From positions 6,899 to 70,898 of the IMG/VR virus record IMGVR_UViG_3300047509_000270: a DNA stretch of 64,000 nucleotides. One strand, 5' to 3'. Both the position numbers and the translations under genes were made by a program. The notes under the pieces are model-generated. The model saw only the letters and a list, made by a program, of their open reading frames with translations, was not told the DNA's origin and ran no database searches. This DNA comes from a virus. Positions 16,696-36,806 of the stretch are shown here, in pieces. Position 1 is the first letter of the stretch; each line of letters opens with the position of its first letter.

Positions 16696-18303
16696 ATGAG
16701 CTCGACCGTCGAGGGTCTCGACCGCGGCGTCTCCGGCACGTCGGCGACGCTCGAGAAGATGCACAAGCTGGTCGCGCTCGGCAAGCTCGACCCGACCATC
16801 CAAAAGATCGCGACCTGGATCCGTCTTTCCGTTCCACAAGATCGTCGCGGCAAGACGACCGACACGGCCGACGCGATCTTCCAGTGGACCAAGGACCACG
16901 GGATCTTCCAGTCGGACCCGTTCCAGATCGAGAAGATCGAGCATCCGATCGAGGCGATGCGCGCCGTCATCGAGAGCCGTCAGAACGGCAGCTACTCCGG
17001 CCCCGGGCTCTTCGTCGGCGACTGCGACACCTTCGCGGTCTTCGTCGCGTCGCTCGGCGGCGTGCTCGGCTTCCAGTACGCCTTCGAGACCGCGAAGGTC
17101 GACGCGAGCCGTCCGGACGAGTTCTCGCACGTCTGGACGTCGCTGCTCGTCAACGGCGACTGGTACCCGCTCGACTCGTCGACACCGGGCGCCTATCCAG
17201 GCTGGCGTCCGCCGGTCGCGCCGGAGCTCCTGGCGCGTTGGCCGGAGCATCCGATCGAGGACGTCGTCGGGAGGTCCGAAATGAGCTCCATGAATCGAGG
17301 TCTCGGCGACGCCGACAACAATGCCTCGCCGCTCGCCGACGTCGACGCCGCCTACCCGAAGGACTACGTCGCCTACGGGATCCCGCGGGACTTCGGCGCC
17401 GGGCCCGGCGTCATTCCAGTCGCGAACTTCGACAACATCCAGCTGCTCCCACCGCACGAGACCCAGATCCCAGATGCCGACCTCCAGCCGGACATGCACT
17501 TCCTGAAGGCGGCGCCCCTGGTCAATCCGTCCGAGCGGATCCAGTCGATCGCCGGACAGCCCGACGACCACGGGAACCCCTACTACAACACCAAGGGCGG
17601 CGTGCCGCCCTACTACAAGGTCCAGCGTCAGTTCTACCCGCCCGGCTCGCGTTGGAACGGTCCGATGGGCGAGGACACCGTCCGGTACGTCAAGACCGGC
17701 GCGTACGTGAAGGTCAAGTCCGGTGAATCACCCGAGAGACAAGTGAGGACGAACATGGGACAGCCGATGACTCTCAAGCGCCGCAACGTCATGGTCACGC
17801 CGCGCCGGGTACCGTACGGCGCGATGGAGGGGTACGGCATGGGCGACGACGTTCCCGGGATCGTCACCTCGCTCGACACGCCGTCGGACTCGACCTCGCC
17901 GGAGGTCGCCGCGACGACCGCGCAGACCTCCGCACCGACCTCCGACTGGCAGAGCACGCTGGTCACGAACAACCAAGTCGCCGCGCCGACGCCGACGTCC
18001 GCGGCGAAGTCCTCGCCGACCGCCTCCGCTGCCGCCGCGGGCGGAACCTCGGTCTGGGACTCGATCTCGGCCGCCTTCAAGGCGGTCGGGACGGTCGCGC
18101 CCGTCGCGCTGCAGTCCTCGCTCGCGCAGTCCGTCATCAACGCGACGAACAAGCTGGCCGGGAAGCAGGTCCTGGCGCCCGGCACGACGGTCCCCTGGTA
18201 CCTGAACCCCGTCACGCTCGGCGCGCTCGCCCTGATCGGCGGCGGCGCATGGTACATCACGTCGAAGTCCCGTCCCGGCAGCCGTCGGAGCCGCCGTCGA
18301 TAG
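16696..18303 (+). CDS. Transglutaminase-like Cys-His-Asp protein with a C-terminal membrane anchor (candidate virion protease)
   Basis: GDCDT, FSHVW, WYPLDS triad; S/T/A/P-rich linker; C-terminal TM plus Arg tail; ATG 16696 after GGAGG. Confidence 0.8.
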   Translation: MSSTVEGLDRGVSGTSATLEKMHKLVALGKLDPTIQKIATWIRLSVPQDRRGKTTDTADAIFQWTKDHGIFQSDPFQIEKIEHPIEAMRAVIESRQNGSYSGPGLFVGDCDTFAVFVASLGGVLGFQYAFETAKVDASRPDEFSHVWTSLLVNGDWYPLDSSTPGAYPGWRPPVAPELLARWPEHPIEDVVGRSEMSSMNRGLGDADNNASPLADVDAAYPKDYVAYGIPRDFGAGPGVIPVANFDNIQLLPPHETQIPDADLQPDMHFLKAAPLVNPSERIQSIAGQPDDHGNPYYNTKGGVPPYYKVQRQFYPPGSRWNGPMGEDTVRYVKTGAYVKVKSGESPERQVRTNMGQPMTLKRRNVMVTPRRVPYGAMEGYGMGDDVPGIVTSLDTPSDSTSPEVAATTAQTSAPTSDWQSTLVTNNQVAAPTPTSAAKSSPTASAAAAGGTSVWDSISAAFKAVGTVAPVALQSSLAQSVINATNKLAGKQVLAPGTTVPWYLNPVTLGALALIGGGAWYITSKSRPGSRRSRRR

Positions 18304-18309
18304 GAACGA

Positions 18310-18591
18310 ATGAACCGTATCGTTTACGTCCGGAGACCCGGCCTGAGCGGCGTCGGCGACGTCACCTCGTCGATCACCGACGCGGCCGTCGCGTCGATGA
18401 CGCCCGCGATCCGCGACATCATGATCAACGACGTCGTCCCGATGCTCGGCGTCTTCATGATCGCAGGCGCCGTCTCGGCGGCGTTCATCGGGACGTGGTT
18501 CGGCCACCGGGCCCAGCGCAACTACTCCGGTGTCCGGAGGAATCCGGTCGCCCGCACGCACGTCTCGCTTCGTCGCCGGAGGACCGCGTGA
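18310..18591 (+). CDS. Small membrane virion protein
   Basis: One TM helix; GLSGVGD and RRNP motifs. Confidence 0.7.
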   Translation: MNRIVYVRRPGLSGVGDVTSSITDAAVASMTPAIRDIMINDVVPMLGVFMIAGAVSAAFIGTWFGHRAQRNYSGVRRNPVARTHVSLRRRRTA

Positions 18592-20963
18592 GAGTCGCGA
18601 AGAATCCGCCGTCCTTCATCCTGGTCGACAAGGAAACCGGCGACGTCGTCTATACGAAGCGTGCGACCGGTGTCGGCTCCGAGGCGATCCGTAAGTGCGT
18701 TGAGAAGGGCCGCGCGCTCACCGCTCGGACCGGCCGGACCTACTTCGTCTACCTCGACATCATGGGCGCGAAGGTCGGTATGAAGCTGTCCGTGCCGATG
18801 GCGTACGCTCTCGGGATCACCGAAGAGATCGGTCCCAAGGGAAGCGCGATGCCGTCGGGTCGTAAGTGCTGCTTCGCTCCGGACGTGCGTCCGTCCGGAC
18901 AGGGGATGCGTTGCATGAATTGCCAGCGTTGGGAGGCCGACAACTACCTGAAGAATCCTCGCCGCGCGCCGGTCCGTCGGAATATCTACGCCTTCAACAA
19001 TCCGCCGTCTGGTCCGGCCGATCCGACTGCGGCGCGCGAACTCGAGCTGTATATCAGCAACGACTCGCAGCTCTACCATTCGCAATTCATCCCGATCGTG
19101 AAGAACCTGATGCTGAAGCGTCGGAAGGGCGTCTACAACCGTGAGCTGACGGTCAAGCTCTTCATGTACCTGATGGATGCCGGTGCGAAGAAGTACGTGA
19201 GGGAGTTCGGAACCGGCGGGAACATCGACACGATGTTCAACAAGAACACGCGCATGGCCGCCGCACGCGCCTTCCGTGACTCCTTCGAGACCGAAGCCGA
19301 GCTCGGGAACTACGACCGGATGATCGGACCCGTCTCGAATCCACTGAACCGCAAGGAAGTCGCTCAGGTCATCAACATGTCGAGAGATATCGCCAGGACC
19401 GCCATCAGAGCGAAGAAGCTCGGCGATGCCAGTCGAGCGAAGGCGAACCTCGCTTACGGTCGAGGGATGCTCGACGTCTCGATGACGTTCTCGCCGCAGG
19501 GCACCCGTAAAGGTGTCAGAAACATGCTCGACCGGTACAACACCATCGAGCGTCGTGAAAGCTCCAGGAGCAATCCGTCCATCCGCGAGAACATCTACAC
19601 GTTCAATAATCCGCGCAAGCTCAACGCGATGGAACGCGCCGCTTCGCTCTTCAACCTCTCCGTTGCGACCTGGGCGCCCGGCGACGGCCTGACACGCTAC
19701 CGTTTCTTCAAGGCGTCCGGACATGGACCGTACGCCGACTACCACCAGGGTGGCGCGATCTATACGGCGAACGGTCGCGGCGAGGCGATAAAGTTCCTGA
19801 AGGCGTACGGCGTCGGCCGCTCGCGGATGAATCCGTCGCCGCACGATCCGTCCGGACTCGCCGAGCTCGACGCGCGCATGAACGACCTGATGCGTCGCAT
19901 GGACGCGATGAAAAAGAGCGGGACCGACAACCGTCCCGAATACATGATCCTCCTGAAGGAGGCTCAGGCGGTCTCGCAGAAGCGTCTCGCTCTGATCGGC
20001 CTCGGGTCGACCTCGATTCAGAAGGGCTTCACGCGCCGGAACCCATGCTCGAATCCGACCTGCAGGATCAAAAAGCACGGACACGTCCGTCAGAACCCGA
20101 TCCTCCAGACGATCTTCCTGGCGAACCCGCCGATCTCGGCGCAGTGGGACCGACTGACCGGCCGCCAGCGCCTCCAGGTCCTCGGCTTCGTCGGCTTCGA
20201 GGAGACCGCCAGCCGGTACGTCCGGCTCCCCTGGAAGCTCCTGTCGAGCATGGTCAGGGAAGCCCTCGAGCAGTACTGGCTCGACTCGACGTCGACGCGC
20301 GGCACGACGCGCCGTCGGATGGCGCCGGTCGGCGCGAATCCGCTGACGCGCCGTGAGGCAGGCAGGATCATCGGCGAGGCGAAGCGCGACATCCGATACG
20401 GCTCCGGATTCCGCTCCGGAGAATTCACCCGTACCGTCAGCGCCGGACAGGCGTTCGGGAAGTCGAAGGTCGTCCGGAAGTACGGCCCGAAGAGCGCCGG
20501 ACGTGCCGCGGCGAAGATCGCCGACAAGGCGCACAAGATGGCCGGGACGATCTTCTCGAACCCCGGCGTCAGCCTCCCGCGTCCCGGCACGAAGCTGACG
20601 ATCTCCCAGGCGCTCGACCTCGCCGAGCGTCTCGGTAACCGCGAGCTCGTCAAGCAGTGCCACGCGGCGATGAAGCTCCAGAAGGCCGCCAACAAGGACG
20701 CGAAGTGCGTCATCTGGAAGGTCTTCCCGATGGGCTCGAAGGACAAGATCGACTCGGTCGTCGCCCTGACGCACTACGGCGACTCGCCGGAGACGATGTA
20801 CAAGCCGCCGCCCGGCTCGAAGAAGGGCAACCACATGTACCGGCACAACTGGGGCGAGAAGGGCGGCAAGCAATCCGTTCCGCTGCTCGCCTCCCCGGAC
20901 GGCAAGATGCTCATGATGCCGCTCGAGGGCCGGAAGGTCGCGTCGGACTGGCTGAGGCATTGA
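18588..20963 (+). CDS. Basic multidomain (polyprotein-like) protein with 13 Asn-Pro motifs
   Basis: GTG 18588 after GGAGG overlaps the upstream stop; segments bounded by KNP/NNP/SNP/RNP/ANP. Confidence 0.75.
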   Translation: MRVAKNPPSFILVDKETGDVVYTKRATGVGSEAIRKCVEKGRALTARTGRTYFVYLDIMGAKVGMKLSVPMAYALGITEEIGPKGSAMPSGRKCCFAPDVRPSGQGMRCMNCQRWEADNYLKNPRRAPVRRNIYAFNNPPSGPADPTAARELELYISNDSQLYHSQFIPIVKNLMLKRRKGVYNRELTVKLFMYLMDAGAKKYVREFGTGGNIDTMFNKNTRMAAARAFRDSFETEAELGNYDRMIGPVSNPLNRKEVAQVINMSRDIARTAIRAKKLGDASRAKANLAYGRGMLDVSMTFSPQGTRKGVRNMLDRYNTIERRESSRSNPSIRENIYTFNNPRKLNAMERAASLFNLSVATWAPGDGLTRYRFFKASGHGPYADYHQGGAIYTANGRGEAIKFLKAYGVGRSRMNPSPHDPSGLAELDARMNDLMRRMDAMKKSGTDNRPEYMILLKEAQAVSQKRLALIGLGSTSIQKGFTRRNPCSNPTCRIKKHGHVRQNPILQTIFLANPPISAQWDRLTGRQRLQVLGFVGFEETASRYVRLPWKLLSSMVREALEQYWLDSTSTRGTTRRRMAPVGANPLTRREAGRIIGEAKRDIRYGSGFRSGEFTRTVSAGQAFGKSKVVRKYGPKSAGRAAAKIADKAHKMAGTIFSNPGVSLPRPGTKLTISQALDLAERLGNRELVKQCHAAMKLQKAANKDAKCVIWKVFPMGSKDKIDSVVALTHYGDSPETMYKPPPGSKKGNHMYRHNWGEKGGKQSVPLLASPDGKMLMMPLEGRKVASDWLRH

Positions 20964-20973
20964 GGGTGAGACC

Positions 20974-22080
20974 ATGATCGGAGCACTCGTATTCGCGAAC
21001 CCCGGGCGGCCTGTCGCCGCACGGAGGAGACGTTCTCGTTCCAGAACCGCCCGCACGACGGGCAAGGAGATTCGGATGGCACGCTCCCGTACGCGCCGTC
21101 GGGCAGGGCGGCGTATGAGAAATGCCAAGGGGCATTTCGTCAAGGCACGTCGGTCGTCCCGGCGTCGTCGCAACCCCAGCGGTCACATCAAGGTCGGTCG
21201 CCGCTGGAGGAAGATCACGAAGTTCGCCACGCGCCGCAAGCGCGGCAAGCATCGCGGACAGATCCGTGGCTTCCACTTCCCGAAACGCTACCGCCAGAGC
21301 CGTCGGCGTCGGGTTCACGCGAACCCGGTCGTCGTGTCGAATCCGCGTCGGCGTCGGGCCCGTCGGAACCCGTACCGCAGCCATCGTCGCCGGTACGCCC
21401 GCCGGAACCCCGCGGTGTCGTATCGCCTGTCGAGCGACCCGATCGCGGCCCTGAAGAACGCCCTGATGTCGGCGTTCTCGATGGACACCCTCGAGACTCT
21501 CGTCCACATGGGCGTCGGCTTCGGCGGCGCCCTGACGCTGGGCAAGTGGCTGTACGTCCAGCCCTGGATGCCCGCCACGGCCGGTTCCGCGTCGTTCGTG
21601 AAGGTCGGCTCGACCTTCCTGTCGACGGCGGTCCTGACCGCCATGTCGGCCGTCCTGAAGCAGCCGCGCCTGACCGCGCGGATCCTGACCGGCGGCCTCT
21701 TCGCGACGCTCTGGCAGGGGCTCTCCGAAGCGGTCTCGGGTACCCAGGTTCAGCAGTACATCCCGACCCTGTCGGGCTCGCCGGAGACCGACGCCTTTCG
21801 CAAGGCGATCGAGTCCGAGGTCCTCAAGGAGCTCAAGGGCGGCGGCGTCCACGGCTACCTGCGTGCGGCCGGATCCGAGGGGATCTCGACGTACCTGCAG
21901 CCCGCCGGGATCAGCTACCTGCGCCCGGCCGGTTCCGAGGCGTACCTGACCAAGGTCAACACCGAGCGTGCGAACGCCGGGATGAGCGCCTACATGACCG
22001 AGGTCAACACCGAGATGGCGAATGCCGGAGTCGGTGACGACGACGAGTTCTCCCGTCGGGGGATGCCGGAGAAGTTCTAG
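20974..22080 (+). CDS. Arg-rich core/DNA-condensing membrane protein
   Basis: Poly-Arg N-terminal half with 6 NP motifs; hydrophobic helices; C-terminal repeats. Confidence 0.7.
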   Translation: MIGALVFANPGRPVAARRRRSRSRTARTTGKEIRMARSRTRRRAGRRMRNAKGHFVKARRSSRRRRNPSGHIKVGRRWRKITKFATRRKRGKHRGQIRGFHFPKRYRQSRRRRVHANPVVVSNPRRRRARRNPYRSHRRRYARRNPAVSYRLSSDPIAALKNALMSAFSMDTLETLVHMGVGFGGALTLGKWLYVQPWMPATAGSASFVKVGSTFLSTAVLTAMSAVLKQPRLTARILTGGLFATLWQGLSEAVSGTQVQQYIPTLSGSPETDAFRKAIESEVLKELKGGGVHGYLRAAGSEGISTYLQPAGISYLRPAGSEAYLTKVNTERANAGMSAYMTEVNTEMANAGVGDDDEFSRRGMPEKF

Positions 22081-22098
22081 TCCGAGCGACTAAGAGGA

Positions 22099-22212: not shown

Positions 22213-22250
22213 CGGCCGGAAGTGGCGCGCGAGACTGAAAGGTGGAAGAC

Positions 22251-22889
22251 ATGGCGAACGGAGCCGCGCCCGCGGACCAGGGCGTGACGGTGGTCCAGCC
22301 CTACTACAAGATCACCCAGGGCGTGCCTGCGGCGATCGTGCGGTCGTACAAGGAACCCCTGTACGACTCGGAAGTGATCCTCGCCGCGACGCCGTCGCGC
22401 GAGTTCACGCTGTACCAGAAGCCCGTCGGCCAGAGCATGAACGACGGCACGGTGAAGACGTTCCTGTATTCGAATCAAACGCAGGCGGGGTCCTTGGGCA
22501 CCCCCTTGAGTTTTGACGTGTACGGGTTCAATGCCCGCGTCTGGGCGTCGCCGTCCTCGAAGATCCTCTCGATCGGCAACTACACGCTCGTCGAAGCGGC
22601 GGGCGTGTCCGAGGTGATCTTCGGCCAGGACACGAAGTTCCTGACCATTCCGATCGAAGACGTCCCCGCGGGCGTCGACACGGAGGGTCTGGGCGCGACC
22701 GACGCGCCGCACATCGGCTGGGGCGTCAGCGATAACATCTACCGGTTCGACATCGGTGGACGTGCGCTGCACATCAACTCGACGGAGCCGTACTCCGTCA
22801 AGATCAGCTGGCCGAGCGGCCTGACCGGCACGACCGGCAACCTGCTGTTTCGGTGGTTCATTCGGGGTATCCGCTACAAAGGCGTCTAG
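22251..22889 (+). CDS. Putative single jelly-roll major capsid protein
   Basis: 212 aa, beta-strand-rich; PLYDS...LYQKPVG...KT...SN...GSLGTP..F pattern; isolated by structured UTRs; strong codon bias. Confidence 0.6.
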   Translation: MANGAAPADQGVTVVQPYYKITQGVPAAIVRSYKEPLYDSEVILAATPSREFTLYQKPVGQSMNDGTVKTFLYSNQTQAGSLGTPLSFDVYGFNARVWASPSSKILSIGNYTLVEAAGVSEVIFGQDTKFLTIPIEDVPAGVDTEGLGATDAPHIGWGVSDNIYRFDIGGRALHINSTEPYSVKISWPSGLTGTTGNLLFRWFIRGIRYKGV

Positions 22890-22911
22890 AGCGCCTTTCG
22901 CGCGCAACTTC

Positions 22912-23020: not shown

Positions 23021-23965
23021 ATGAGCTGGGGTCAGGTACCGACATTCCTGCGCGACAAGGATTCCGGCAAGATCTACATGAACCCGGCGAAGGACTGGGT
23101 TCAGCCATTCGAGCTGACGGTCTCGAAGCCGAACCAGCTGATCCACCTCGCCGCGGGCGAGAACCGCGGGCCCTTCCCGCTGACCGCCCAGTACGACGGT
23201 CCGATCGAGTGCTTCTACGTAAAGTGCAACGTCTACGCGCCCGCCGACGATCCGACGCTGCCGGGCGCGCTCGTCCAGACCTACGACATCGACTTCCTGC
23301 TGGAGCATCCCGGCAAGCGGATCCAGTTCTCCAATCGGAAAGTTCCGCTGATCGCGCTCTCCGGGAATGCCGCGCAGCCGTACGTCCTGCCGGAGACGAT
23401 CTTCATCCCGCCGGTCCAATCGCTCAATCTGACGCTCGTCAACAACGACCTCGTCAACGCCCGCTTCGTCGAGTTCGTCCTGGGCGGCATCAAGTTCTAC
23501 CCGAACATGGCTCCGGCCGGGGCGATCAAGGACGAGGTCTGGAAGTACGTCGACCGTCGCGAGCGGACCTACGCCTACTTCCAGACGACCGACGAGCCGG
23601 TCGTCCTGACGGCGGGCCAGGAGAACATCTTCTTCATGACGATCCCGGACAACTCCGACTTCGAGTGCTTCAAGCTGACCCAGCAGTCGACCGGCCAGTT
23701 CCGCTGTCTGGTCCGGGACGGCCAGAACGATCGCGCCCTGACCGGCGACCGGGTCCACCGGGACCTGCTGTTCGGCGGGCACGCCGAGATGCCGGACGGT
23801 GCGGGCGCGTTCCTCGGGTCCGGTGGGATCTGGCCCGCCCGCTGGGCGGCCTCCTGGCTGATCCGCCGCTCGACGAAGGTCCAGCTCGACCTGCTGGACA
23901 TCTCCGGTGCGGACAACACGATCAAGCCGGTCTTCGCGGGGAGAAAGATCTCGTATGTCAGCTAA
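23021..23965 (+). CDS. Putative capsid protein with a tandem duplicated beta domain (double jelly-roll-like)
   Basis: The halves align: LAAGEN/LTAGQEN, IECF/FECF, FVLGGIKF/VFAGRKI. Confidence 0.6.
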   Translation: MSWGQVPTFLRDKDSGKIYMNPAKDWVQPFELTVSKPNQLIHLAAGENRGPFPLTAQYDGPIECFYVKCNVYAPADDPTLPGALVQTYDIDFLLEHPGKRIQFSNRKVPLIALSGNAAQPYVLPETIFIPPVQSLNLTLVNNDLVNARFVEFVLGGIKFYPNMAPAGAIKDEVWKYVDRRERTYAYFQTTDEPVVLTAGQENIFFMTIPDNSDFECFKLTQQSTGQFRCLVRDGQNDRALTGDRVHRDLLFGGHAEMPDGAGAFLGSGGIWPARWAASWLIRRSTKVQLDLLDISGADNTIKPVFAGRKISYVS

Positions 23966-24680
23966 GAAACCGCCGCGTCCTCCGGGACGCCCGCCGGGTC
24001 CCCCGCGCGGGGGCGGCATGGGCGGTCCGGACCACGAGGGCTACCACTACGAGGGCTGGCGCGATGCCGGACAGGGCGAGCCGCGTCCGGAGGACGTCGT
24101 CTTCGATCCGTCCTGTCCGCCGCCGCCGGACCCGTGCGGCAAGCCGAAGGTCTGCTTCGTCAAGTTCCCGGCCTTCAATCAGCCGCCCTGGTTCGCGAAG
24201 CCGCTGATCAAGGTCCGCTCGTCGCTGATCATCCCGGCCGGTTCGATCGCGCTCGTCTTCGACCGCGAGATCGCCGACCGGCAGCGCGCCGTCTCGTCGT
24301 TCCTCGGGATCGACGTCGCGCCGATCGCGCCTCTCATGAACTCGCAGCTCGAGTTCTGGTTCCAGCTCGGCAAGAAGGGCGTCGCCGAGCCCTCGAAGAA
24401 CATCATCCAGGTCTGGGACGACCAGAATCCGAACTCGTACGGGACCTCGCACGCGATCCAGTCCGGACGGACGACGGTCTGGCCGGGCGTCGGGACGCCG
24501 CTCAAGTTCTTCGAGGCCGGGCTGCAGTTCGGCCTCCGTGGACGCTGCCAGTTCCAAGGCCTGATCGAGAACCGGTCCGGCGTCGACGTGACGATCCGCG
24601 CGCTCTTCGGCTACTACTACTACTGGGCGAGCGCGAAGGGCGGAGCCTCGGAGTTCGAGTCCGGCGACTTCGAGTCGTAA
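23955..24680 (+). CDS. Putative minor capsid protein (Pro-rich N-terminus plus beta domain)
   Basis: ATG 23955 overlaps the upstream gene; beta-rich C-terminal domain. Confidence 0.55.
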   Translation: MSAKKPPRPPGRPPGPPRGGGMGGPDHEGYHYEGWRDAGQGEPRPEDVVFDPSCPPPPDPCGKPKVCFVKFPAFNQPPWFAKPLIKVRSSLIIPAGSIALVFDREIADRQRAVSSFLGIDVAPIAPLMNSQLEFWFQLGKKGVAEPSKNIIQVWDDQNPNSYGTSHAIQSGRTTVWPGVGTPLKFFEAGLQFGLRGRCQFQGLIENRSGVDVTIRALFGYYYYWASAKGGASEFESGDFES

Positions 24681-24690
24681 AGGAGAAACG

Positions 24691-25104
24691 ATGCCCGCGC
24701 CACTGAACCCGAATCTCTGGCCGACCGTCCTGCACGACGAGGACGGGATCCCGATCGGACCCCTGAATCCGCTGCCGGTCACGGGCGGCGGAGGCGGAGG
24801 CGGATCGTCGCCGAACCAGCCGACCTTCGCGGTCAACCAGCAGACCGTCGCGGTCCCCGGCACCGCCGCACAGCTCCAGGCGCAGGCCGTTCCGAACGGC
24901 TTCCAGATTTTCGTCCGTGCGCTGATCACGAACAATGGTAACATCTACGTCGGCCCGTCCGCCGCGGACGCCCAGAACCATACGAAGGCGACGATCCTCG
25001 AGCCCGGGGCCTTCGTCGAGCTGGCTCTGACGAACGTCAATGCGATCTTCATCGACGCCGACGATGCGGCCGACGGCGTCTCCTGGATCGTGGAGGTCGC
25101 CTAG
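24691..25104 (+). CDS. Small beta-rich structural protein (vertex/penton-like)
   Basis: RALITNNGNIYVG, ILEPG, IFIDAD...DGVSW. Confidence 0.55.
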   Translation: MPAPLNPNLWPTVLHDEDGIPIGPLNPLPVTGGGGGGGSSPNQPTFAVNQQTVAVPGTAAQLQAQAVPNGFQIFVRALITNNGNIYVGPSAADAQNHTKATILEPGAFVELALTNVNAIFIDADDAADGVSWIVEVA

Positions 25105-25106
25105 CC

Positions 25107-26003: not shown

Positions 26004-26006
26004 CGT

Positions 26007-27068: not shown

Positions 27069-27079
27069 AGGTAGCTAGC

Positions 27080-27460: not shown

Positions 27461-27471
27461 GATAGGCGCCG

Positions 27472-28170: not shown

Positions 28171-28219
28171 AATGAATAAAGGAATTCGACCGGGGACAAG
28201 GAAAGGTTGGGTCTAATCG

Positions 28220-28495
28220 ATGGTACCTTTCGTGTCCATGATTCTGGATATCTCGGCGGTCGAGCCGCCGAGCGGCGCGATCAGCCCTCTCGCCTGGGCT
28301 ATCATCGTCGCCCTTTCGTTCGTCTGCGCGACGGCGATACCGGCGCTTTGGTACCGCGGGAACAAGATCCAGGATAAGATGTACGAGGACCTGAAGAAGT
28401 GTAACGAGAAGCGTCTCCAGTCCGAGGAGGACCAGCTCGGTCTCCTGAAGGTCCTGCGCCTCCAGATGGAGGCATCGAGAGGAGCCAAGAGATGA
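28220..28495 (+). CDS. Single-TM protein with a coiled tail (holin-like)
   Basis: Hydrophobic helix followed by a charged helix. Confidence 0.5.
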   Translation: MVPFVSMILDISAVEPPSGAISPLAWAIIVALSFVCATAIPALWYRGNKIQDKMYEDLKKCNEKRLQSEEDQLGLLKVLRLQMEASRGAKR

Positions 28496-28737: not shown

Positions 28738-28844
28738 GATCTACGTAACCGCCCGTCCCTAGCCGGGCGGTTCTGATCCGGCGATCGGCGAGTACTGGCG
28801 GAAAGCCCGGGGCGGGCGGGAATATTGTCGATAGGAGGGTGCTT

Positions 28845-29102
28845 GTGAATATGTCCGATATCCTGGTGAAGGTGAAGCCGGTTCTGTACAAGGCGATCGT
28901 CGCCGCCATCACGATGGCGCTGATCAAGTTCCTCCCGAAGCTCGGCGTCACGATCACGCTGGACGACGCCAGGATGATCGCCGGTCTCGGCGGGACGATC
29001 ATCATCGGCATGGGCATGAACTGGGCCGCCAAGACGCACGCGACCATCATGAGCGAAGCGGCGCCCGACAGTGCGGGCGCCCCGCCGGAAACGAAACCTT
29101 AA
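28845..29102 (+). CDS. Two-TM membrane protein (holin-like)
   Basis: Two hydrophobic helices; GGAGG RBS. Confidence 0.55.
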   Translation: MNMSDILVKVKPVLYKAIVAAITMALIKFLPKLGVTITLDDARMIAGLGGTIIIGMGMNWAAKTHATIMSEAAPDSAGAPPETKP

Positions 29103-29112
29103 GGAGATCCAA

Positions 29113-29457
29113 GTGAAGAAGACGGCATCGATCGTACTGCTCCTCGCCTTCGTCCTCTGCGCGCTGGTCTCGTGCAAGACGATCAACCGGGACGCTCTCG
29201 CCGCCTGGACGGCGGGCGACGTCGTCATCATGCAGGATCTCCAGGACTACCGAGCCGCCCAGGGAAAGCCCGCCGACGACGTGAAGGTGCATCTCGCGAA
29301 GGCCTTCGGCGAGATCACGGCCGACGAGGAGAACGCCCTCGTCGCCGAGACGCTCGCCGACATCCAGGCCGATCCGAAGCGGTCCGCCCAACGAAAAGCG
29401 TCCTATGCGACTCGCGTCTCGGCACACCTGAATCTTTTCAATTCCCTGAAACAGTAA
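29113..29457 (+). CDS. Lipoprotein
   Basis: MKKTASIVLLLAFVLCALVS-C lipobox; AAGGAG RBS. Confidence 0.7.
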   Translation: MKKTASIVLLLAFVLCALVSCKTINRDALAAWTAGDVVIMQDLQDYRAAQGKPADDVKVHLAKAFGEITADEENALVAETLADIQADPKRSAQRKASYATRVSAHLNLFNSLKQ

Positions 29458-29466
29458 GGAGCGAAC

Positions 29467-29835
29467 ATGGCCGATTCGATCAGCATCAGCGCCATCGCGA
29501 GTTCGATCCTGACCGACGCGAAGGGTCTTCTCGAGGCGAAGGCGACCGGCTTCCTGAAGGACCACCCGGATGCGCTCGCGCTCCTCGAGAAGGCGGCCTC
29601 GCAGGCGGCCGAGGCGATGCTCGATCTCGTGACCGAGACGGATCCGCAGAAGAAAGCGGAGATCCGGGACTCGTTCAACGACGACAAGGACGCTCTGAAG
29701 GAAGAGGGTTACTCGATCATCGTCGACGTCGAGGGGACGACGAAGTCGCTCTTCTGGACGATTCTGGAAGATATGGGTCGGATCACGCTGAATCTCGCTC
29801 CGATCCTGCTCAAGAGCATCCCGATCCCGATCTAA
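29467..29835 (+). CDS. Helical hypothetical protein
   Basis: AAGGAG RBS. Confidence 0.7.
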   Translation: MADSISISAIASSILTDAKGLLEAKATGFLKDHPDALALLEKAASQAAEAMLDLVTETDPQKKAEIRDSFNDDKDALKEEGYSIIVDVEGTTKSLFWTILEDMGRITLNLAPILLKSIPIPI

Positions 29836-29850
29836 CGAACGGAGAATCCG

Positions 29851-30930
29851 ATGCGAGTCTACGCCGAACCCGGCTACGGTCTCAGCGACATTGAGACCGA
29901 GGCGCTCCGGCGACTTTCGCCGCGCTCGCGCGCGCTCATTCTCGACGAGCTCGGTCATCCGGACTCGCACGGTACGATCCAGTGGGTCCTCCGTCAGCGT
30001 GATCCGGAGAGAGCTCTCGCGAATGCCGTCGCCGAGAACGTCCATCAGGCGACTATCGATGTGGCGGCCGGAGGTCTCAGTGACGGGCTCGGCCGAAGCT
30101 TCTTCAAGAGGCTGGCGAGACTCCACCGGAAGATCTTTAACCGACTTGATCCCATCCGGAAGATCGCGTTCGGAGGGAAGAAGAAACACCGTGGCGGAGC
30201 TCCGATCGTGTCGCAACCCGCAGCTGCAGCCGCAACTCCCGCTTCGACGGACGCCTCGTCCACTCCTCCACTTCCCCCTCCTCAGCCTCCGCCTCCTCCT
30301 CTACCGTCACCCGTTACATACGCCGCGCCTCCGGACTCCACGTCCTCGTACTCTCCGCCGCCGCAGGGTCCGGTCAACTACGTCCAGGAGCAGCCGCCTC
30401 CCGACGTCGCGTCTCCGCAGGCGATGCCGCCCGACGCGCCGCCGGTCCCGCTTCCGGCGCAGGTCGCGCCTCCTCCGACGCCCGCGGCGGCTCCGTCGTA
30501 CGCGGAGAGCACCGACGAGACTACCGGACTCCCGTCGGCTGGCGGCTACACGCTGACTGTCGAGGGCCAGACGATCACGAACTATCCGGTCCCGCTCGGG
30601 ACACTCTCGTCGCTCGTCCAGTCCGGAACGCAGCCCGGAGATCGTTTCGAGATCCTGGCCGACGGCGTCGGGACCGGCCTCCGCGTCCGGACGGCGGGCG
30701 GCTTCATCGCGATCCCGGACTCGATCCGCGCGCAGGTCATGGCGATGCCGCACGATCAGGTCCTCGCGCTCCTGACGCAGGCCGCTGCGAACGTCGCCGC
30801 GGCGGGCGGTCCGGACGGTCCGGCGCCGGTCCCGACGCCCGCCAGCTCCGGCGGCGGCACGACGGCGGTCCTGCTGGCGATCCTGGGCGGCGGCGCCGCC
30901 CTGGTCGCGTCGAAGGGGAAGCGTCGGTGA
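29851..30930 (+). CDS. Pro-rich tail-anchored virion protein
   Basis: GYGLSD and GLSDGLG motifs; poly-Pro linker; C-terminal LLAILGGGAAL..KGKRR. Confidence 0.7.
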   Translation: MRVYAEPGYGLSDIETEALRRLSPRSRALILDELGHPDSHGTIQWVLRQRDPERALANAVAENVHQATIDVAAGGLSDGLGRSFFKRLARLHRKIFNRLDPIRKIAFGGKKKHRGGAPIVSQPAAAAATPASTDASSTPPLPPPQPPPPPLPSPVTYAAPPDSTSSYSPPPQGPVNYVQEQPPPDVASPQAMPPDAPPVPLPAQVAPPPTPAAAPSYAESTDETTGLPSAGGYTLTVEGQTITNYPVPLGTLSSLVQSGTQPGDRFEILADGVGTGLRVRTAGGFIAIPDSIRAQVMAMPHDQVLALLTQAAANVAAAGGPDGPAPVPTPASSGGGTTAVLLAILGGGAALVASKGKRR

Positions 30931-32231
30931 GGTACGTCCGACGTCCCGGTCTCGGCTTCACGATCCCGGTCGACCCGACCGCCGGTCAGCGTGGCGGCGC
31001 GCCGATCACGTATCCGGGATACCAGTGCCAGATTCGCTACCTCGCCGACGGGACTGTTCAGTCGAACGGGACATCCGTCCGCCATACAATGGCGGGAGCT
31101 CCGTCCTGCGATCTGTCGTCTGGATGGGTCGACTATGACTTGTCGAAGCCGTTCAACGGCCTGAAGAAGTGGGTCGACGGGATCGAGTTCCAGTACAACG
31201 CCGTCGGTGGCGCCGGATTCATGGCGACGCCGATCGGCTGGAACATGACGACCGACGGTCAGCGTGAGTTCGGCGCCCGATCCGCCGCCCAGCGCGCGTC
31301 CGGCTCGTCCGCGGACGGGAGCCCCTACGCGCCTCTGCCTCCTGGAGTCGAGCAGACGACGCCGGTCGATCCACGGAACGTCAGCGATCCGGTCATGATG
31401 GAGTACGCCATCGCGAAGGACGCGGCCAGCCAGCACGCGCCGAGCGCGATCTACAGGATCTACGATCCGTTCACCTGGAAGGGCTATCAGGCGCTCCCGG
31501 ACGGCTTCCTGGAGCCGCAGGACGGCGGCGTCTGGGTGCTCGCCTCCGACAACGTCCTCGACGCCGTCCAGAAGCAGTTCGGCATCATGAAGGATCCCTG
31601 GTACTGGATGGTCGCGACGCATCCGACGACCGGACAGCTGAGGCTCTTCCTGGCGGCCCGCGATCCGTCCCGGAGCACGATCTGGAGCAAGCTCGGCAAG
31701 ACCGGACCGCTCGTGATCTCGATCCTCGGGACCGTCCTGGCGCCGTTCACGTTCGGCGCCTCGTCCGCCGTCGCCGCCGTCGTCGACACGGCAATCGCGC
31801 TCGAGCAGAAGAAGGCCGCTGCGGCTGCCGCGGTACGGGCCGGAGACCATCAGGCCGCCGTCATGTCGCAGCAGGTCGCCGACCAGGAGGGTCAGGTCAA
31901 CCAGCAGGCCGACGCGGTCTACCAGCAGAATCAGACCGCCTTCCTGGCGGCCGGATACACGTCGGACAAGTGGGCGGCCCTGACGCTCGACCAGAAGACG
32001 GCGCTGATCCAGCAGGCCGCCGCCGGTCAGCTCCAGCCGACGCCCGCCGCGGTCGCGGTCGCGCAGCAGACCCAGCAGGCGCTCGATCAGGCCGTCCAGG
32101 ACGCGACCGTCAAGGCCGGACTCGGCGTTCCGTCGACGCAGGCCGCGACGTCGTCCGGTGGGATCGGCTGGCTGCTCGCGATCCTGGGCGGCGGTGCCGC
32201 GCTCGCGGTGGCGGGCGGGAAGAAGCGATAG
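30927..32231 (+). CDS. Tail-anchored virion protein
   Basis: N-terminal YVRRPGLG; Q/A-rich helix; C-terminal LLAILGGGAAL..GKKR. Confidence 0.7.
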   Translation: MRYVRRPGLGFTIPVDPTAGQRGGAPITYPGYQCQIRYLADGTVQSNGTSVRHTMAGAPSCDLSSGWVDYDLSKPFNGLKKWVDGIEFQYNAVGGAGFMATPIGWNMTTDGQREFGARSAAQRASGSSADGSPYAPLPPGVEQTTPVDPRNVSDPVMMEYAIAKDAASQHAPSAIYRIYDPFTWKGYQALPDGFLEPQDGGVWVLASDNVLDAVQKQFGIMKDPWYWMVATHPTTGQLRLFLAARDPSRSTIWSKLGKTGPLVISILGTVLAPFTFGASSAVAAVVDTAIALEQKKAAAAAAVRAGDHQAAVMSQQVADQEGQVNQQADAVYQQNQTAFLAAGYTSDKWAALTLDQKTALIQQAAAGQLQPTPAAVAVAQQTQQALDQAVQDATVKAGLGVPSTQAATSSGGIGWLLAILGGGAALAVAGGKKR

Positions 32232-32840
32232 ATGGACCGGAACGTCGCGTACGCCCAGGCCCTCGCTACCGCCATGGCGGCCGACATCAGCTCACCTGCC
32301 GTCGCTGCCGCTCTCCAGAACGACGCCCTGACACGAGACCAGTTCACGTCGATCGTCTACCGGGACGTCGCGAAGGGTCTCCGCGGCGATCCGGGACCGG
32401 CGATCTTCCCGAACGTCCGGGCGTTCGCCCGGCAGGTCGTAGACATCGGTGTCATCCGGACGAGAAAGTCGACCGGTCTGTCCGACACCTACTCGTCCGA
32501 CATCGGCGGAATCTCGGGACTCGTCGGCGCGATTGCCGGTGCGGTCGGCGCGATCTACAGCACGAAGATCAATACGGACGCCCAGAAGCAGCTGGCAACG
32601 ATCAAGGCGAACGAGGCCCAGATCGCGCAGAACTCCCAGACGATCGCCGCGAAGTCGGCCCTGATCCAGAACGCCACGTCGAACGGACTCCTCGTGGCGC
32701 CGACCGGCTCGCTCGTCGATCCGTCCGCCGGGATCGTCACGGCCGGTCCGCTCGCCGCAGTCGGAGGACTTCCGGGCGTCGCGATCGGGACGGCGGCGAT
32801 TGCGGTGCTGGTCGGCGGCTACTATGCGATGAAAGGATAG
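32232..32840 (+). CDS. Tail-anchored virion protein
   Basis: Ala/Gly-rich; C-terminal TM. Confidence 0.7.
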   Translation: MDRNVAYAQALATAMAADISSPAVAAALQNDALTRDQFTSIVYRDVAKGLRGDPGPAIFPNVRAFARQVVDIGVIRTRKSTGLSDTYSSDIGGISGLVGAIAGAVGAIYSTKINTDAQKQLATIKANEAQIAQNSQTIAAKSALIQNATSNGLLVAPTGSLVDPSAGIVTAGPLAAVGGLPGVAIGTAAIAVLVGGYYAMKG

Positions 32841-32843
32841 ACC

Positions 32844-33770
32844 ATGCGTACGAGACACATCCGTCCCGTCCCGAGGCCCCGCGTCTTCCGCCAGGATCCG
32901 ACGATCCAGGTCAACGTTGCGACGATGATCCCGGACGGGATGCACGGCTACCACGACGAGGGCTGGCGCAGCGCGACGCTGATTCCGGACGGGATGCACG
33001 CGCACATGGTCGCCGACGACACGGCCTTCGCGACCGAGCCGGTCATCGCGAAGCTCGTCGTGAACGGGATGTCGCACGAGGAGGCCCGCTCGGTCGTCTG
33101 GGACGCAGCCGAGCGAGTCCGGTCCGGTGCGACCTCCGGTCTCGGTATCGCGATCATGGTCGACAAGCGCGCCGCTCTCGACGCCGTCTTCCAGGACCTC
33201 CTGGCCCGCGGCATCTCGCCCGACCGGGCCAGGATCCTCGTCCACCGGGCGGCCATGCGCCGGGCCGGTCTGGCCGGACTCGGCGACGACGCGGCCGATG
33301 CCGCAGCGGCGGCCCGCCTCGCGGCGATCTCGGCCGCCGCGAAGGCCGCCCAGAACTCACACCAGTCGATGATCGCGAGCATGGCATCCTGGGAGGAGCG
33401 CGAGCCCGGCTGGGTCACGACCGACGACAACCTCCGCCTGAACTTCCAGGACCAGCTGACGGCGCTCGAGAACAATTTCGTCGCGAACGCGCTCCCGACG
33501 CTCGGCGTCGAGTTCCCGTACCAGATCGACCGGACCGATCCGGCCGGTGCGATCGTCCTGGCGGTCCGGGACGACATCCAGAACACGATCGACCTGCTCG
33601 ACGCCCGGAAGTCCCAGCAGGTCCTCCAGAAGACGATCTCGGACCTGTCGAAGGTCCCGCTGCCGTCGGCGCCGCCCAGCTTCAGCCTGAACCTGCCGGA
33701 CGTCCCCTGGTACGTCTGGGCGGGCGGGGCGGGCGTCGGCCTGCTGGCGCTCAAGCAGATGCTCAAGTAG
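32844..33770 (+). CDS. Tail-anchored virion protein
   Basis: ATxIPDGMH duplicated; GLAGLGDD; C-terminal PWYVWAGGAGVGLL. Confidence 0.7.
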   Translation: MRTRHIRPVPRPRVFRQDPTIQVNVATMIPDGMHGYHDEGWRSATLIPDGMHAHMVADDTAFATEPVIAKLVVNGMSHEEARSVVWDAAERVRSGATSGLGIAIMVDKRAALDAVFQDLLARGISPDRARILVHRAAMRRAGLAGLGDDAADAAAAARLAAISAAAKAAQNSHQSMIASMASWEEREPGWVTTDDNLRLNFQDQLTALENNFVANALPTLGVEFPYQIDRTDPAGAIVLAVRDDIQNTIDLLDARKSQQVLQKTISDLSKVPLPSAPPSFSLNLPDVPWYVWAGGAGVGLLALKQMLK

Positions 33771-33856
33771 GGGGTGAAAAGTCGATTCCTGCACAGTAGA
33801 ATAGTTCAGTCACGGCGGGTCGCGCCGTGGCGGGGTGGAAGAAGAAGGAGATAGGT

Positions 33857-35182
33857 ATGCCGAACAACAAGCCGCAGCTGATCGACATGATCCGGACGGT
33901 CCCGGAGGTCGCCGTGAGACTCTGGGCGGGCGGCGTCCCACGTCCATGCGACGACGGCGTCCGGATCGAGTTCGAGGACCGCGCGCCGGTCTTCCACGGG
34001 GACATCTACCAGGAGGCCGTCAAGGTCGCTCGGGTCCTGGCGATCCGCTGGGGCGGCCGGAAGCTCCGGACGATCCAGGACGTCCTGGACCTCCGGCACG
34101 CCGCCGAGGACGCCTTCATCGACCAGCTCTTCCAGAAGGGCGATGTCCCGTCGACGCTGTTCGTTCCGGCCGGTGAGACCGCATCCGGCTTCTACCGGGC
34201 GATGATCCCGTCGGACCTCCTGAACGAGGGCGGACGCGTCGTCTCGCAGTGGACGTCCCGGCTGGACGTCTCGAAGGCGCTCCGGTACGACGTCCTCTGG
34301 ATCCAGCTGATCACGTCCGACGTCCTGACCGAGATCGCCCGTCAGGCGCAGTCCCAGGGCGTCCGGATCGTCTACGACCTCGACGACCGGCTCGACGCGA
34401 TCCCCGACGAGAATCAGGCGAAGACCGTCTACGGGACGCCGGAGAAGCAGGCCGAGATCGACGCGATGATCCGCGTCGCCGACATGGTCACGGTCACGAC
34501 CGAGCCGCTCGCGGCGCACCTGCGCCGGAAGTATCCGGGCAAGCTCGTCCGGATCCTTCCGAACATGGTGACCGCGAACGTCGCGCCCCGCCGCCAGCCG
34601 CCGAATCCGGCCTTCGTCCGGATCCTCTGGGCGGGCTCGGCGACGCACAAGCGGGACCTCGCGATCATCGCCCCGGCGATCGGGACACTCCTGCGCGAGC
34701 GGGCCGGGAAGGTCCGCTTCACGCTCTTCGGCGAGCGCCTGCCGGAGGCCCTGAAGGACTGCTACGACCTGATCGACCTGAAGAGGCCGGTCGACTTCGC
34801 CGACTACCACGACGCGCTCGCCGAGTGCGCCGCGGACTTCGGGATCGTCCCGCTCGAGGCGAATGAGTTCAATACCGGCAAGTCCGGCCTGAAGGGTCTC
34901 GAGTACGCCTCGGCGGCCTATCCGCTGCTCTGCTCTCCGGCCGCCGAGTACCCCGCGCTCGTCGAGGCCGGGTTCCCGGTCGAACTCGTCGCCGACGGCG
35001 ACTGGCTGCCCGCGCTCCGGCGGATGGTCGACCGGACGCACGACGAACGGACCGCACTCGGTGCGGCGGCGCTCGACTGGGTCTGCCGGAATCGCTGCAT
35101 GGGCAAGAACCACGCGGACCAGTGGGCCGACGCGATCTGCGAGCTGGTCGCGTCGAAGCCGAAACTGGAGACGGTGCGCTGA
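33857..35182 (+). CDS. Glycosyltransferase, GT-B fold
   Basis: GFYRAMIP, VYDLDD, WAGSATHKRDL, PLEANEFNTGKSGLKGLEY. Confidence 0.85.
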   Translation: MPNNKPQLIDMIRTVPEVAVRLWAGGVPRPCDDGVRIEFEDRAPVFHGDIYQEAVKVARVLAIRWGGRKLRTIQDVLDLRHAAEDAFIDQLFQKGDVPSTLFVPAGETASGFYRAMIPSDLLNEGGRVVSQWTSRLDVSKALRYDVLWIQLITSDVLTEIARQAQSQGVRIVYDLDDRLDAIPDENQAKTVYGTPEKQAEIDAMIRVADMVTVTTEPLAAHLRRKYPGKLVRILPNMVTANVAPRRQPPNPAFVRILWAGSATHKRDLAIIAPAIGTLLRERAGKVRFTLFGERLPEALKDCYDLIDLKRPVDFADYHDALAECAADFGIVPLEANEFNTGKSGLKGLEYASAAYPLLCSPAAEYPALVEAGFPVELVADGDWLPALRRMVDRTHDERTALGAAALDWVCRNRCMGKNHADQWADAICELVASKPKLETVR

Positions 35183-35442: not shown

Positions 35443-35445
35443 ACG

Positions 35446-35892
35446 ATGTCGGCTCCCAGCGCCAAGGAACTCCTGAAGGCGTTCCCGAGTCTCGAATCCG
35501 TCGAGGCGCAGAAACTCGCCGATCGCCTGAAGGCCGCCGTCGACGCCGACGATCCGGAGCAGGTCGACGACGTCATGGACGCCGTGAACGAGGCCGTCGA
35601 CGGTCACGGCGTCGAGTCGATCAACGGCACGGACTACCAAGTCGACAAGTACTGGATGGACACGATCCTCCTGTACGTGAATCTCGGAGACACGTACGAC
35701 ACGACCCTCCTGTACGACACCGAGAACAACGAGTTCTCGATCGGCTCCTACGGAGACTTCGTCGAGAAGTGGGAGAACGAAGAGGAGGACGACGAGGAGG
35801 ACGACGAGGAGGAAGAGGAAACGGAAGAGGACGACGAAAGCGACGGCGAGGAATCCGACAAGGAAGACGTCGAAACCGAGGAGGCCGAATAG
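35446..35892 (+). CDS. Highly acidic protein
   Basis: HGVE..YVNLGDTYDTTLLY core followed by a ~35-residue D/E tail. Confidence 0.7.
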   Translation: MSAPSAKELLKAFPSLESVEAQKLADRLKAAVDADDPEQVDDVMDAVNEAVDGHGVESINGTDYQVDKYWMDTILLYVNLGDTYDTTLLYDTENNEFSIGSYGDFVEKWENEEEDDEEDDEEEEETEEDDESDGEESDKEDVETEEAE

Positions 35893-35894
35893 CC

Positions 35895-36584
35895 ATGCCG
35901 CTGACCACCGAACAGTACCGGACCCTGCTCGACGTCCAGCGGAGCCTCGTCCGTGACGGCTGGCATCCCGCCGTCGCCGGTCAGACGATCCTCCGAGCCG
36001 TCGACCGGATATCGCCGGGCGGCATGAGCGGCTGCGGAACGGACTGCTGCTGCTGCCGTGGGAACGGTCTCGGCAGAGTCCAGATGCGCTCGCTCCGGCG
36101 CGACATGGATCCGTCGATTCCGCCGCGCCAGACCGTCCAGGGCGAGCAGTGCGTCCGGATCGCCGAGACCGACGGCGTCGACGAGACGTCGATGTGGCAG
36201 CGGCTCGACGACTACCGGTCGCGCGGATGGACCGTCATGGAGATCGCATCGAACCAGGGCTTCCCGTCCGGACGAGTCTACTGGGCCTGCCCGCCCGGAC
36301 GTACGCCGCTCGAGGCGCAGAACCAGATCCTCGCCGCGCAGCTCGGCGCGACGACGGCCGCTCCGACGGTGGCCGCGGCGGCTCCAGGCTCTCCGTCGAT
36401 CCTGACCGAGATCTCCTCGGCCGGGGACGATCCGGGCGTCACAGCGGCCAGAAACATCGTCAGCAAGTGGTCCTGGCTGATTCCGGTCGGCGGACTCCTG
36501 ATGAGCGCGAAGTCGAAGGTCTCCGGACTCCTCTCGAAGAACGACCCAGCCTACGCGGCGGCGAAGAGTCTGAGGCGTCGGTGA
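35895..36584 (+). CDS. Putative virion protein with a C-terminal hydrophobic segment
   Basis: ATG 35895; GMSGCG-TDCCCC-RGNGLG. Confidence 0.65.
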   Translation: MPLTTEQYRTLLDVQRSLVRDGWHPAVAGQTILRAVDRISPGGMSGCGTDCCCCRGNGLGRVQMRSLRRDMDPSIPPRQTVQGEQCVRIAETDGVDETSMWQRLDDYRSRGWTVMEIASNQGFPSGRVYWACPPGRTPLEAQNQILAAQLGATTAAPTVAAAAPGSPSILTEISSAGDDPGVTAARNIVSKWSWLIPVGGLLMSAKSKVSGLLSKNDPAYAAAKSLRRR

Positions 36585-36802: not shown

Positions 36803-36806
36803 GACT

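Follow-up and report, generated by a model that had tools for sequence, protein, structure and literature searches.

The window examined here is a stretch of 64,000 nucleotides corresponding to bases 6899-70898 of the IMG/VR virus record IMGVR_UViG_3300047509_000270, the whole of which is a single contig of 70,898 bases. Gene positions were taken from a GC3-guided call of open reading frames (ORFs), which placed 31 ORFs between window positions 13144 and 37549, all on the plus strand except for small, doubtful minus-strand ORFs at 28213-28488 and 36278-36654. A co-oriented gene block had been recognized at 16696-36584 in an earlier reading of the letters alone (the sequence-only reading), and the gene call showed the block to be wider than claimed. 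It is faced by a minus-strand replication module at 692-12838. Within the block lie adjacent genes for two predicted jelly-roll proteins that are candidate capsid proteins of the virus, and a paralogue of one of them is encoded outside the block:

22242-22889, plus strand: 215-amino acid (aa) single jelly-roll (SJR) protein (likely start 22251), candidate penton or second capsid protein and proposed counterpart of gp46 of the Salisaeta phage SSIP-1, assigned from its predicted structure.
23021-23965, plus strand: 314-aa double jelly-roll (DJR) protein, candidate major capsid protein and proposed counterpart of SSIP-1 gp47, assigned from its predicted structure.
56916-57551, minus strand: 211-aa paralogue of the SJR protein (25% identity to 22242-22889), with a 58% homologue in only one (G001) of the three complete relatives described below.

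Structures were predicted for two of the four proteins that the sequence-only reading had named as beta-rich capsid candidates, those encoded at 23021-23965 and 22242-22889, and a jelly-roll fold was obtained for each. The 314-aa protein was modeled as a confident DJR, and the 215-aa protein as an SJR at lower confidence. The 314-aa protein was also predicted to form a head-to-tail trimer of the type that makes pseudo-hexameric capsomers, and the model therefore has the two vertical barrels and the trimeric arrangement by which a Bamfordvirae major capsid protein is recognized. When searched against PDB structures, the DJR model aligned to full-length capsid proteins across both barrels. A Foldseek search of BFVD gave as its best match by template modeling (TM) score a 256-aa entry (0.55 by query and 0.67 by target), which ranked fourth by E-value. 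The top BFVD match of the SJR model was a 211-aa entry (E 9e-5, TM score 0.45).

The 314-aa protein matched no Pfam family, DUF2961 included, at E<=0.01, and neither jelly-roll protein gave a tblastn match at E<=0.01 among 50,697 GenBank phage records, where chance-level rows alone appeared at E<=10. Against the sequences of the PDB, a broad DJR capsid profile (A3) returned nothing better than E 1, and the SJR profile (A2) likewise returned nothing meaningful. Searching PHROGs with 66 diverse members of the capsid superfamily produced a match for one member, to one unnamed family. Profile-profile comparison revealed no link from the 241-, 137-, 298-, 353-, 368-, or 308-aa proteins of the block to the SJR or DJR families. 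The SJR paralogue, which sits about 34 kb from the virion block, had no Pfam match.

The best PDB matches of the 215-aa model were virion proteins of SPV1 and HHIV-2, and SPV1 VP4 was also found in BFVD. These matches, together with the second SJR gene at 56916-57551, would be in keeping with a tailless virus whose shell is built mainly of SJR protein(s), as in SPV1 and the sphaerolipoviruses, and in which the 314-aa protein serves as a vertex, turret, or enzyme component. The listing of the SSIP-1 capsid as "single jelly roll?", alongside two types of capsid protein, in the available text of PMC6356626 and PMC6260650, points the same way, as does our structure search, in which cellular DJR enzymes matched the 314-aa model as well as capsid proteins did. 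Compared with cellular DJR proteins such as the DUF2961/GH172 glycosidases, PNGase F, and PHM, the gene found here differs in that it lies within a viral morphogenesis block with an SJR gene as its neighbor, and that no gene of the lineage is better conserved. We consider a shell made mainly of SJR protein improbable.

The SJR gene was found at seven IMG/VR loci, and four of the records concerned are genomes that are near-complete or carry direct terminal repeats (DTR), at 67-73 kb. The present genome was compared with three complete relatives of 68.9-72.7 kb, all DTR records classed by IMG/VR as viral at 100% completeness. The core so defined comprises a DinG-type helicase, the SJR and DJR proteins, proteins of 230, 162, 730, 557, 904, 368, 241, 137, and 308 aa, a GT4 glycosyltransferase, two small proteins encoded at 36708-37549, an 83-aa protein, and a methyltransferase. 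Conservation is highest for the DJR protein, at 75-90% identity in the three relatives. A search of 1.84 billion representative proteins with the capsid profile retrieved 445 at E<=1e-3 and 209 at E<=1e-10. The lineage is widespread and uncultured. The DJR protein forms 103 clusters at 90% identity; in 13 of these the longest contig reaches 64-75 kb, and in none does it exceed 75,050 bases, so that about 70 kb is the genome size of the lineage. Some distant capsid relatives are found on contigs of 53-58 kb.

The 127 bases that open the present contig recur at its other end (window 63874-64000), and IMG/VR classes it as a viral DTR record, with a CheckV completeness of 100%. Assemblers often use a word length of 127, and the repeat therefore probably reflects overlapping ends of a genome that is circular or circularly permuted rather than a true terminal repeat. 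The genome is complete double-stranded DNA (dsDNA) of about 70.8 kb with a GC content of about 61%, and is probably circular.

Terminase, portal, HK97 capsid, tape measure, and baseplate genes had been noted as missing by the sequence-only reading, and none was detectable in the whole genome, in which none of 60 proteins matched Pfam families of these kinds or those of sheath and tube. Six-frame searches of the genome with PF03237 (Terminase_6N), PF03354 (TerL_ATPase), PF05065 (Phage_capsid), and PF04860 (Phage_portal) yielded nothing, and at the sequence level an HK97-fold capsid and a portal were negative with PF05065, PF04860, and the Pfam and PHROG scans, PHROGs having been run on 20 proteins of the genome. 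Six-frame searches of the three complete relatives (69-73 kb) with PF03237 and PF03354 likewise gave nothing over the cut-off. A 12.9-bit match to Terminase_6N in G001 was dismissed as chance, being below the cut-off and antisense to the counterpart of the gene for the 730-aa protein. Beyond the window, the remaining 6.9 kb was found to hold only a methyltransferase-GT2 fusion and ORFans, with no head-tail module. The two findings that the sequence-only reading had named as telling against it, candidates lacking jelly-roll folds and a head-tail module elsewhere in the element, were both looked for, and neither was encountered.

The one cultured virus found to be related is SSIP-1, which the available text of PMC6356626 and PMC6260650 describes as a tailless, membrane-containing icosahedral phage of about 100 nm with two capsid protein types, and for which a table in PMC6260650 gives 44 kb and T=49. 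The tblastn searches did not reach SSIP-1. When profile A3 was searched with hmmsearch against the 38 SSIP-1 proteins, gp47 (256 aa) alone was retrieved at E 5e-5, with the next protein at 0.87; the A1 profile gave E 0.0034. The probability from hhalign of the DJR family against gp47 as a single sequence was only 13.5%. By sequence, gp46 (211 aa) scored E 0.21 with the A2 profile, tied with two other proteins, and 2.3% with hhalign. In BFVD, the accession of the 211-aa entry matched by the SJR model directly precedes that of the 256-aa entry matched by the DJR model, and from these lengths and the accession order we infer that the entries are SSIP-1 gp46 and gp47. SSIP-1 gp34, labeled a structural protein in its GenBank record and matching Pfam Transglut_core at E 8.9e-7, was matched by phmmer to the 557-aa protein of the block in all four genomes (E 1.6e-5 to 9e-4). 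SSIP-1 gp40, a structural ATPase of AAA_25 type, had no phmmer match at E<=1 in the four genomes, and neither of the two ATPases in the window resembled it in pairwise comparison. The AAA_24 protein of the replication module was considered as its counterpart and rejected. None of the other SSIP-1 proteins matched the four genomes at E<0.04 with phmmer. At the profile level, SSIP-1 thus shares at least two virion genes with the lineage.

The above considerations strongly indicated that 13144-37549 is the virion morphogenesis module of an uncultured, tailless bacterial DJR virus of Varidnaviria/Bamfordvirae type, with a genome of about 70.8 kb and a distant relationship to SSIP-1, and we regard this assignment as highly probable. 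Support is good for the capsid fold and for the lack of head-tail genes; the membrane, spike, and penton roles, and the route of DNA condensation, are proposed from the genes. The sequence-only reading had suggested an undescribed or little-characterized large varidnavirus-like lineage of at least 64 kb. The complete 70.8-kb genome, the DJR fold, and the lack of head-tail genes uphold this suggestion, but a cultured relative, SSIP-1, does exist.

Weighing against the assignment are two PHROG matches and the distribution of one ATPase gene. The PHROG "tail fiber assembly" was weakly matched by 27472-28170 (E 6.5e-4, over 34 glycine-rich residues), and the PHROG "terminase large subunit" was matched at E 2e-10 by the product of a gene far downstream of the block:

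49005-50408, plus strand: 467-aa HerA-clade ATPase with a Walker A motif at residue 30, a coiled coil, and a weak C-terminal winged-helix (TrmB-like) match, assigned from the Walker A motif, PDB matches, and homologues.

This protein matched HerA chains of the PDB at E 7.6e-5 as a single sequence and at E 8e-23 to 1e-7 with its family profile, and the profile found no chain labeled terminase or viral packaging ATPase at E<=0.01. PF01935 and PF05872 are found in its homologues, and its own matches to NCBIfam HerA are weak. The "terminase" match therefore belongs, on these comparisons, to a HerA-type protein. Some 25 kb separate this gene from that of the capsid protein. G001 has a homologue at 72% identity, and G004 a longer and far more divergent one (27%). 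The gene was absent from G003 (100% complete) and G002 (93%) by BLAST, HMM, and a 20-sequence profile. The P-loop proteins of G003 are limited to a DinG-type helicase, an AAA_24 protein, a D5 helicase, and one 289-aa ORFan, and none of the ten lineage-specific G003 proteins of at least 180 aa matched an ATPase family. G001 has no D5 or AAA_24 homologue, and the DinG-type helicase is the only P-loop protein common to all four genomes. A conserved FtsK-HerA packaging ATPase, the second hallmark of Varidnaviria, thus does not appear to be a core gene here. Because complete relatives lack it, the role of packaging motor was downgraded to a possibility, and the gene is best described as an accessory one whose product may be a packaging ATPase. 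In the available text of PMC5894146, the Odin group is without a packaging ATPase, and FLiP is grouped with Odin. Together with a 161-aa gene, the ATPase gene forms a single unit (49005-50903, plus strand) that is present in G001 and absent from G003 with the flanking genes kept. Homologues of the ATPase recur on contigs of 50-100 kb.

The same data bear on whether the element could be a very divergent tailed phage (Caudoviricetes), with head-tail proteins beyond the reach of Pfam and PHROGs and with jelly rolls that act as decoration, cement, or receptor-binding proteins. The power of the family searches was limited, in that 20 of the 21 block proteins scanned (13144-37124) were Pfam ORFans and the 13 run on PHROGs gave one weak match. 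Jelly rolls do occur in cement, turret, and fiber proteins of tailed phages (KHP40 cement, HFTV1 turret, and phage 7-7-1 fibers were among the structure matches), and the replication genes are of a kind common in tailed phages, to which may be added the PHROG label of the HerA-like ATPase. However, neither the P-loop inventory nor the lineage-specific proteins of the complete relative G003 offer a terminase candidate, and the ATPase family profile favors HerA over any terminase-labeled chain. The 314-aa protein, moreover, aligns with full-length capsid proteins across its two barrels, exceeds all other gene products in conservation, and is predicted to trimerize as a capsomer would, and SSIP-1 is tailless according to the text cited above. 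We therefore judge a tailed phage to be an unlikely identity for this element, and retain that of a tailless DJR virus.

The other features of the virion block, all encoded on the plus strand, are as follows:

13144-15336, plus strand: 730-aa acidic protein with much predicted coiled coil and disorder, which opens the block; 44-61% identity in all three relatives.
16630-18303, plus strand: 557-aa protein (likely start 16696) with an N-terminal transglutaminase-like domain of cysteine-protease type and a hydrophobic C-terminal end; homologue of SSIP-1 gp34.
18249-20963, plus strand: 904-aa very basic protein (165 K+R versus 84 D+E), candidate internal or core protein; in all three relatives.
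20974-22080, plus strand: 368-aa protein in which hydrophobic helices follow an arginine-rich N-terminal part, a candidate for a membrane-bound protein that condenses DNA; 62-81% identity in all three relatives.
23955-24680, plus strand: 241-aa conserved protein with a basic proline/glycine-rich N-terminus; 73-87% identity in all three relatives.
24691-25104, plus strand: 137-aa acidic protein containing a run of glycines; two relatives share it at 70-91% identity, and the third has a match over 36 residues.
25107-28170, plus strand: variable region encoding paralogues of 298 and 353 aa and a 232-aa protein rich in glycine, all candidates for vertex spikes or for host recognition (hhalign and comparison of relatives).
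28839-33770, plus strand: small and mid-sized proteins, most with predicted transmembrane segments or C-terminal hydrophobic anchors, candidate virion membrane proteins (hydrophobicity scan).
33827-35182, plus strand: GT4-type glycosyltransferase within the block (Pfam Glyco_trans_1_2, 1.4e-6); 61-74% identity in all three relatives.
36708-37549, plus strand: two conserved small proteins at the end of the block, the second with three transmembrane segments (comparison of relatives and transmembrane scan).

The 730-aa protein had no Pfam, PHROG, PDB (E<=1), or NCBIfam hit, and its Atlas model (pLDDT 0.43) had no fold match; that it acts like a scaffold is no more than a guess. For the 557-aa protein, the Atlas model matched Transglut_core clusters over residues 23-206 with TM scores of 0.81-0.89 by hit, and C132, H167, and D182, which make up a Cys-His-Asp triad, are invariant in the protein from the four genomes and in SSIP-1 gp34. 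A PDB sequence search with this protein gave no match at E<=1. Homology of the 904-aa protein covers only part of its length in two of the three relatives, and it had no match in Pfam, PHROGs, the PDB (E<=1), or NCBIfam. The 368-aa protein has 76 K+R versus 20 D+E and matched no family in Pfam, PHROGs, or NCBIfam. Repeated Arg/Lys-Asn-Pro motifs are found in both of these basic proteins (18249-22080, plus strand). No match was obtained for the 241-aa protein in Pfam, PHROGs, or NCBIfam, or for the 137-aa protein in Pfam or PHROGs.

In the variable region, the 298-aa (25107-26003) and 353-aa (26007-27068) proteins are paralogues by hhalign (probability 85%, E 6e-6, 211 columns), and nothing encoded at 26007-28170 has a homologue in any of the three complete relatives. 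This paralogy and the lack of counterparts fit host-recognition genes, and the pair suggests a duplicated, fast-changing gene of this kind; the products of 25107-28170 may thus be host-recognition spikes. The many membrane proteins claimed for the block by the sequence-only reading were confirmed, with at least one transmembrane-like segment in 9 of the 31 ORFs by a simple hydrophobicity scan. These segments cluster at 28839-32840 and 37124-37549, and in the first cluster fall in the ORFs starting at 28839, 29071, 29851, 30927 (two), and 32232 (two). By eye, sub-threshold hydrophobic stretches were seen in three more proteins: the 557-aa and 308-aa proteins, each at its C-terminal end, and the 368-aa protein, as internal helices. 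The six proteins scanned from the 28839-33770 cluster had no Pfam match, and the 308-aa protein (32844-33770) is present in all three relatives. Such a cluster fits, so far as sequence can indicate, a virus with an internal membrane. The glycosyltransferase at 33827-35182 was just over the Glyco_trans_1_2 cut-off, with three related glycosyltransferase families at or under theirs, and its retention in all three relatives hints at glycosylation of virion or host surface components. The genome has three glycosyltransferase genes, two of GT4 type at 2106-3842 (minus strand) and 33827-35182 (plus strand) and the methyltransferase-GT2 fusion at contig positions 5433-6605 (minus strand).

The replication module, which also contains the first of these GT4 enzymes, is represented mainly by one group of genes:

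5866-12838, minus strand: Prim-Pol/D5 helicase, 230-aa core protein, AAA_24 (Sak4-like) ATPase, and DinG/XPD-type helicase (Pfam, PHROG, and NCBIfam matches).

Only the DinG-type helicase and the 230-aa protein of this group occur in all three relatives. The complete relative G001 lacks homologues of the Prim-Pol/D5 helicase and AAA_24 protein (5866-10307, minus strand), which indicates that the replication module is exchangeable while the virion block is kept. On the 3' side of the block are small-gene arrays and accessory genes for SprT, DUF6011, HNH, the HerA-like ATPase, GP88, a tyrosine integrase, a methyltransferase, and BKACE. The last, a beta-keto acid cleavage enzyme (62769-63875, minus strand; Pfam E 3.5e-68; 65% in G003), is a metabolic gene unusual for a virus. 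No tRNA genes were found. A scan of genome contigs gave only one 14-kb contig of a binned metagenome-assembled genome, a weak hint of host, and no sign of integration.

Shine-Dalgarno-like GGAG/GAGG motifs precede 40 of 92 genes, compared with a background of 13.7%, and the genes are densely packed. These motifs and the phage-like accessory genes make a prokaryotic host likely, and probably a bacterial one. The bins holding homologues are labeled as two classes of Acidobacteriota and one Thermoplasmata, a weak hint of host. The Thermoplasmata archaeon bin, the D5-type primase-helicase, which is typical of nucleocytoviruses too, and the presence of Hyperionvirus and Terrestrivirus proteins and a pithovirus capsid protein among the BFVD matches of the DJR model could be taken to mean that the element is not a bacterial virus at all, and is instead a eukaryotic or archaeal virus related to polinton-like viruses or nucleocytoviruses, or a plasmid-like element with cellular DJR-family genes. 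The giant-virus matches, however, had TM scores of only 0.30-0.38, versus those given above for the 256-aa entry. The translation signals and gene packing, the phage-type genes (Sak4-like, HNH_3, GP88, SprT, and tyrosine integrase), and the existence of 69-73-kb DTR records classed as viral and 100% complete also argue against such an origin, which we consider highly unlikely, although an archaeal host is possible on these data.

If the element is a tailless DJR virus of bacteria, its particle might be put together as follows. DJR trimers would tile an icosahedral shell larger than the T=49 shell of SSIP-1, with the SJR protein forming the pentons or a second type of capsomer and the variable paralogues of 25107-28170 forming the vertex spikes. 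An internal lipid membrane would house roughly ten transmembrane proteins. The DNA would be condensed by the 368-aa protein, which is arginine-rich and membrane-linked, and by the basic 904-aa protein, the transglutaminase-like enzyme may mature or cross-link virion proteins, and the GT4 enzyme could glycosylate virion or host surface components. Only tentatively can a broader proposal be made, which we hold to be possible but doubtful: that the genomes of about 70 kb and SSIP-1 make up a deep, abundant, unclassified, and probably class-level branch of DJR bacterial viruses, in which the genome expanded several-fold past the range published for prokaryotes, the capsid is filled with no dedicated, conserved packaging ATPase, and DNA is condensed on arginine-rich, membrane-anchored core proteins processed by a virion transglutaminase-like protease, a route nearer to the core formation of adenoviruses than to packaging by a motor.

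Tailless jelly-roll phages are regarded as small-genome viruses, and a lineage of 69-73 kb departs from that. If the assignment is true, the prokaryotic side of the realm Varidnaviria explored large genomes too, SSIP-1 gains a large family, and a new, sequence-unrelated DJR capsid family becomes available for reconstructing the evolution of the realm. The most interesting point is the question of how a 70-kb dsDNA genome would be packaged without a conserved packaging ATPase. Virus classifiers based on marker genes are likely to mislabel or miss such contigs, and surveys of soil viromes may therefore undercount the lineage.

Among known systems, P23-77 and SH1, with which the sequence-only reading had compared the window, proved unsuitable, as the main capsid candidate here is a DJR protein and theirs are two SJR proteins; prokaryotic DJR viruses and SSIP-1 make a more apt comparison. 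Viruses of Helvetiavirae type (P23-77, SH1, and HHIV-2) and SPV1 have a shell of two SJR proteins and no DJR protein, whereas a full DJR protein is present here. Their genomes, at about 17-31 kb, are also far smaller. The DJR protein has no sequence similarity to those of STIV (Turriviridae), PRD1 (Tectiviridae), PM2 (Corticoviridae), or FLiP/phiCjT23. Most prokaryotic DJR viruses share an FtsK-HerA packaging ATPase, but the one found here is of the HerA clade, far from the capsid gene, and dispensable in relatives. Genomes of prokaryotic DJR viruses are given as roughly 7 to 18 kb in the available text of PMC5894146; the present genome is 4-10 times that size, and at 70,898 bases here and 68.9-72.7 kb in the relatives the lineage falls outside the 7-18 kb of the Tectiliviricetes type. 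Among the entries consulted in the comparison table of PMC6260650, the largest prokaryotic one is SSIP-1 at 44 kb, and a 2026 review of viral gigantism (PMC13359090), in its available text, treats large phages as tailed only. A full-text literature search covering few subscription journals revealed no account of DJR viruses of prokaryotes with genomes near 70 kb.

SSIP-1 differs from the present virus in its smaller genome (43.8 kb versus 70.8 kb, the latter about 1.6 times larger), in being a hypersaline isolate, whereas the GC-rich relatives here come from public metagenome and genome collections, and in its AAA_25 structural ATPase gp40, which has no counterpart here; similarity between the two is at the profile and fold level only. 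The likenesses lie in the virion genes. Each has an adjacent pair of virion genes in the same order, proposed to be counterparts, encoding 211 and 256 aa in SSIP-1 and 215 and 314 aa here, and upstream of the capsid genes each encodes a transglutaminase-like virion protein whose Cys-His-Asp triad is shared. Also ahead of the capsid genes, both encode a structural protein that is very large or basic (gp43 in SSIP-1 and the 904-aa protein here), and the tailless, membrane-containing design shown for SSIP-1 in the literature is the one to which the genes of the present virus point.

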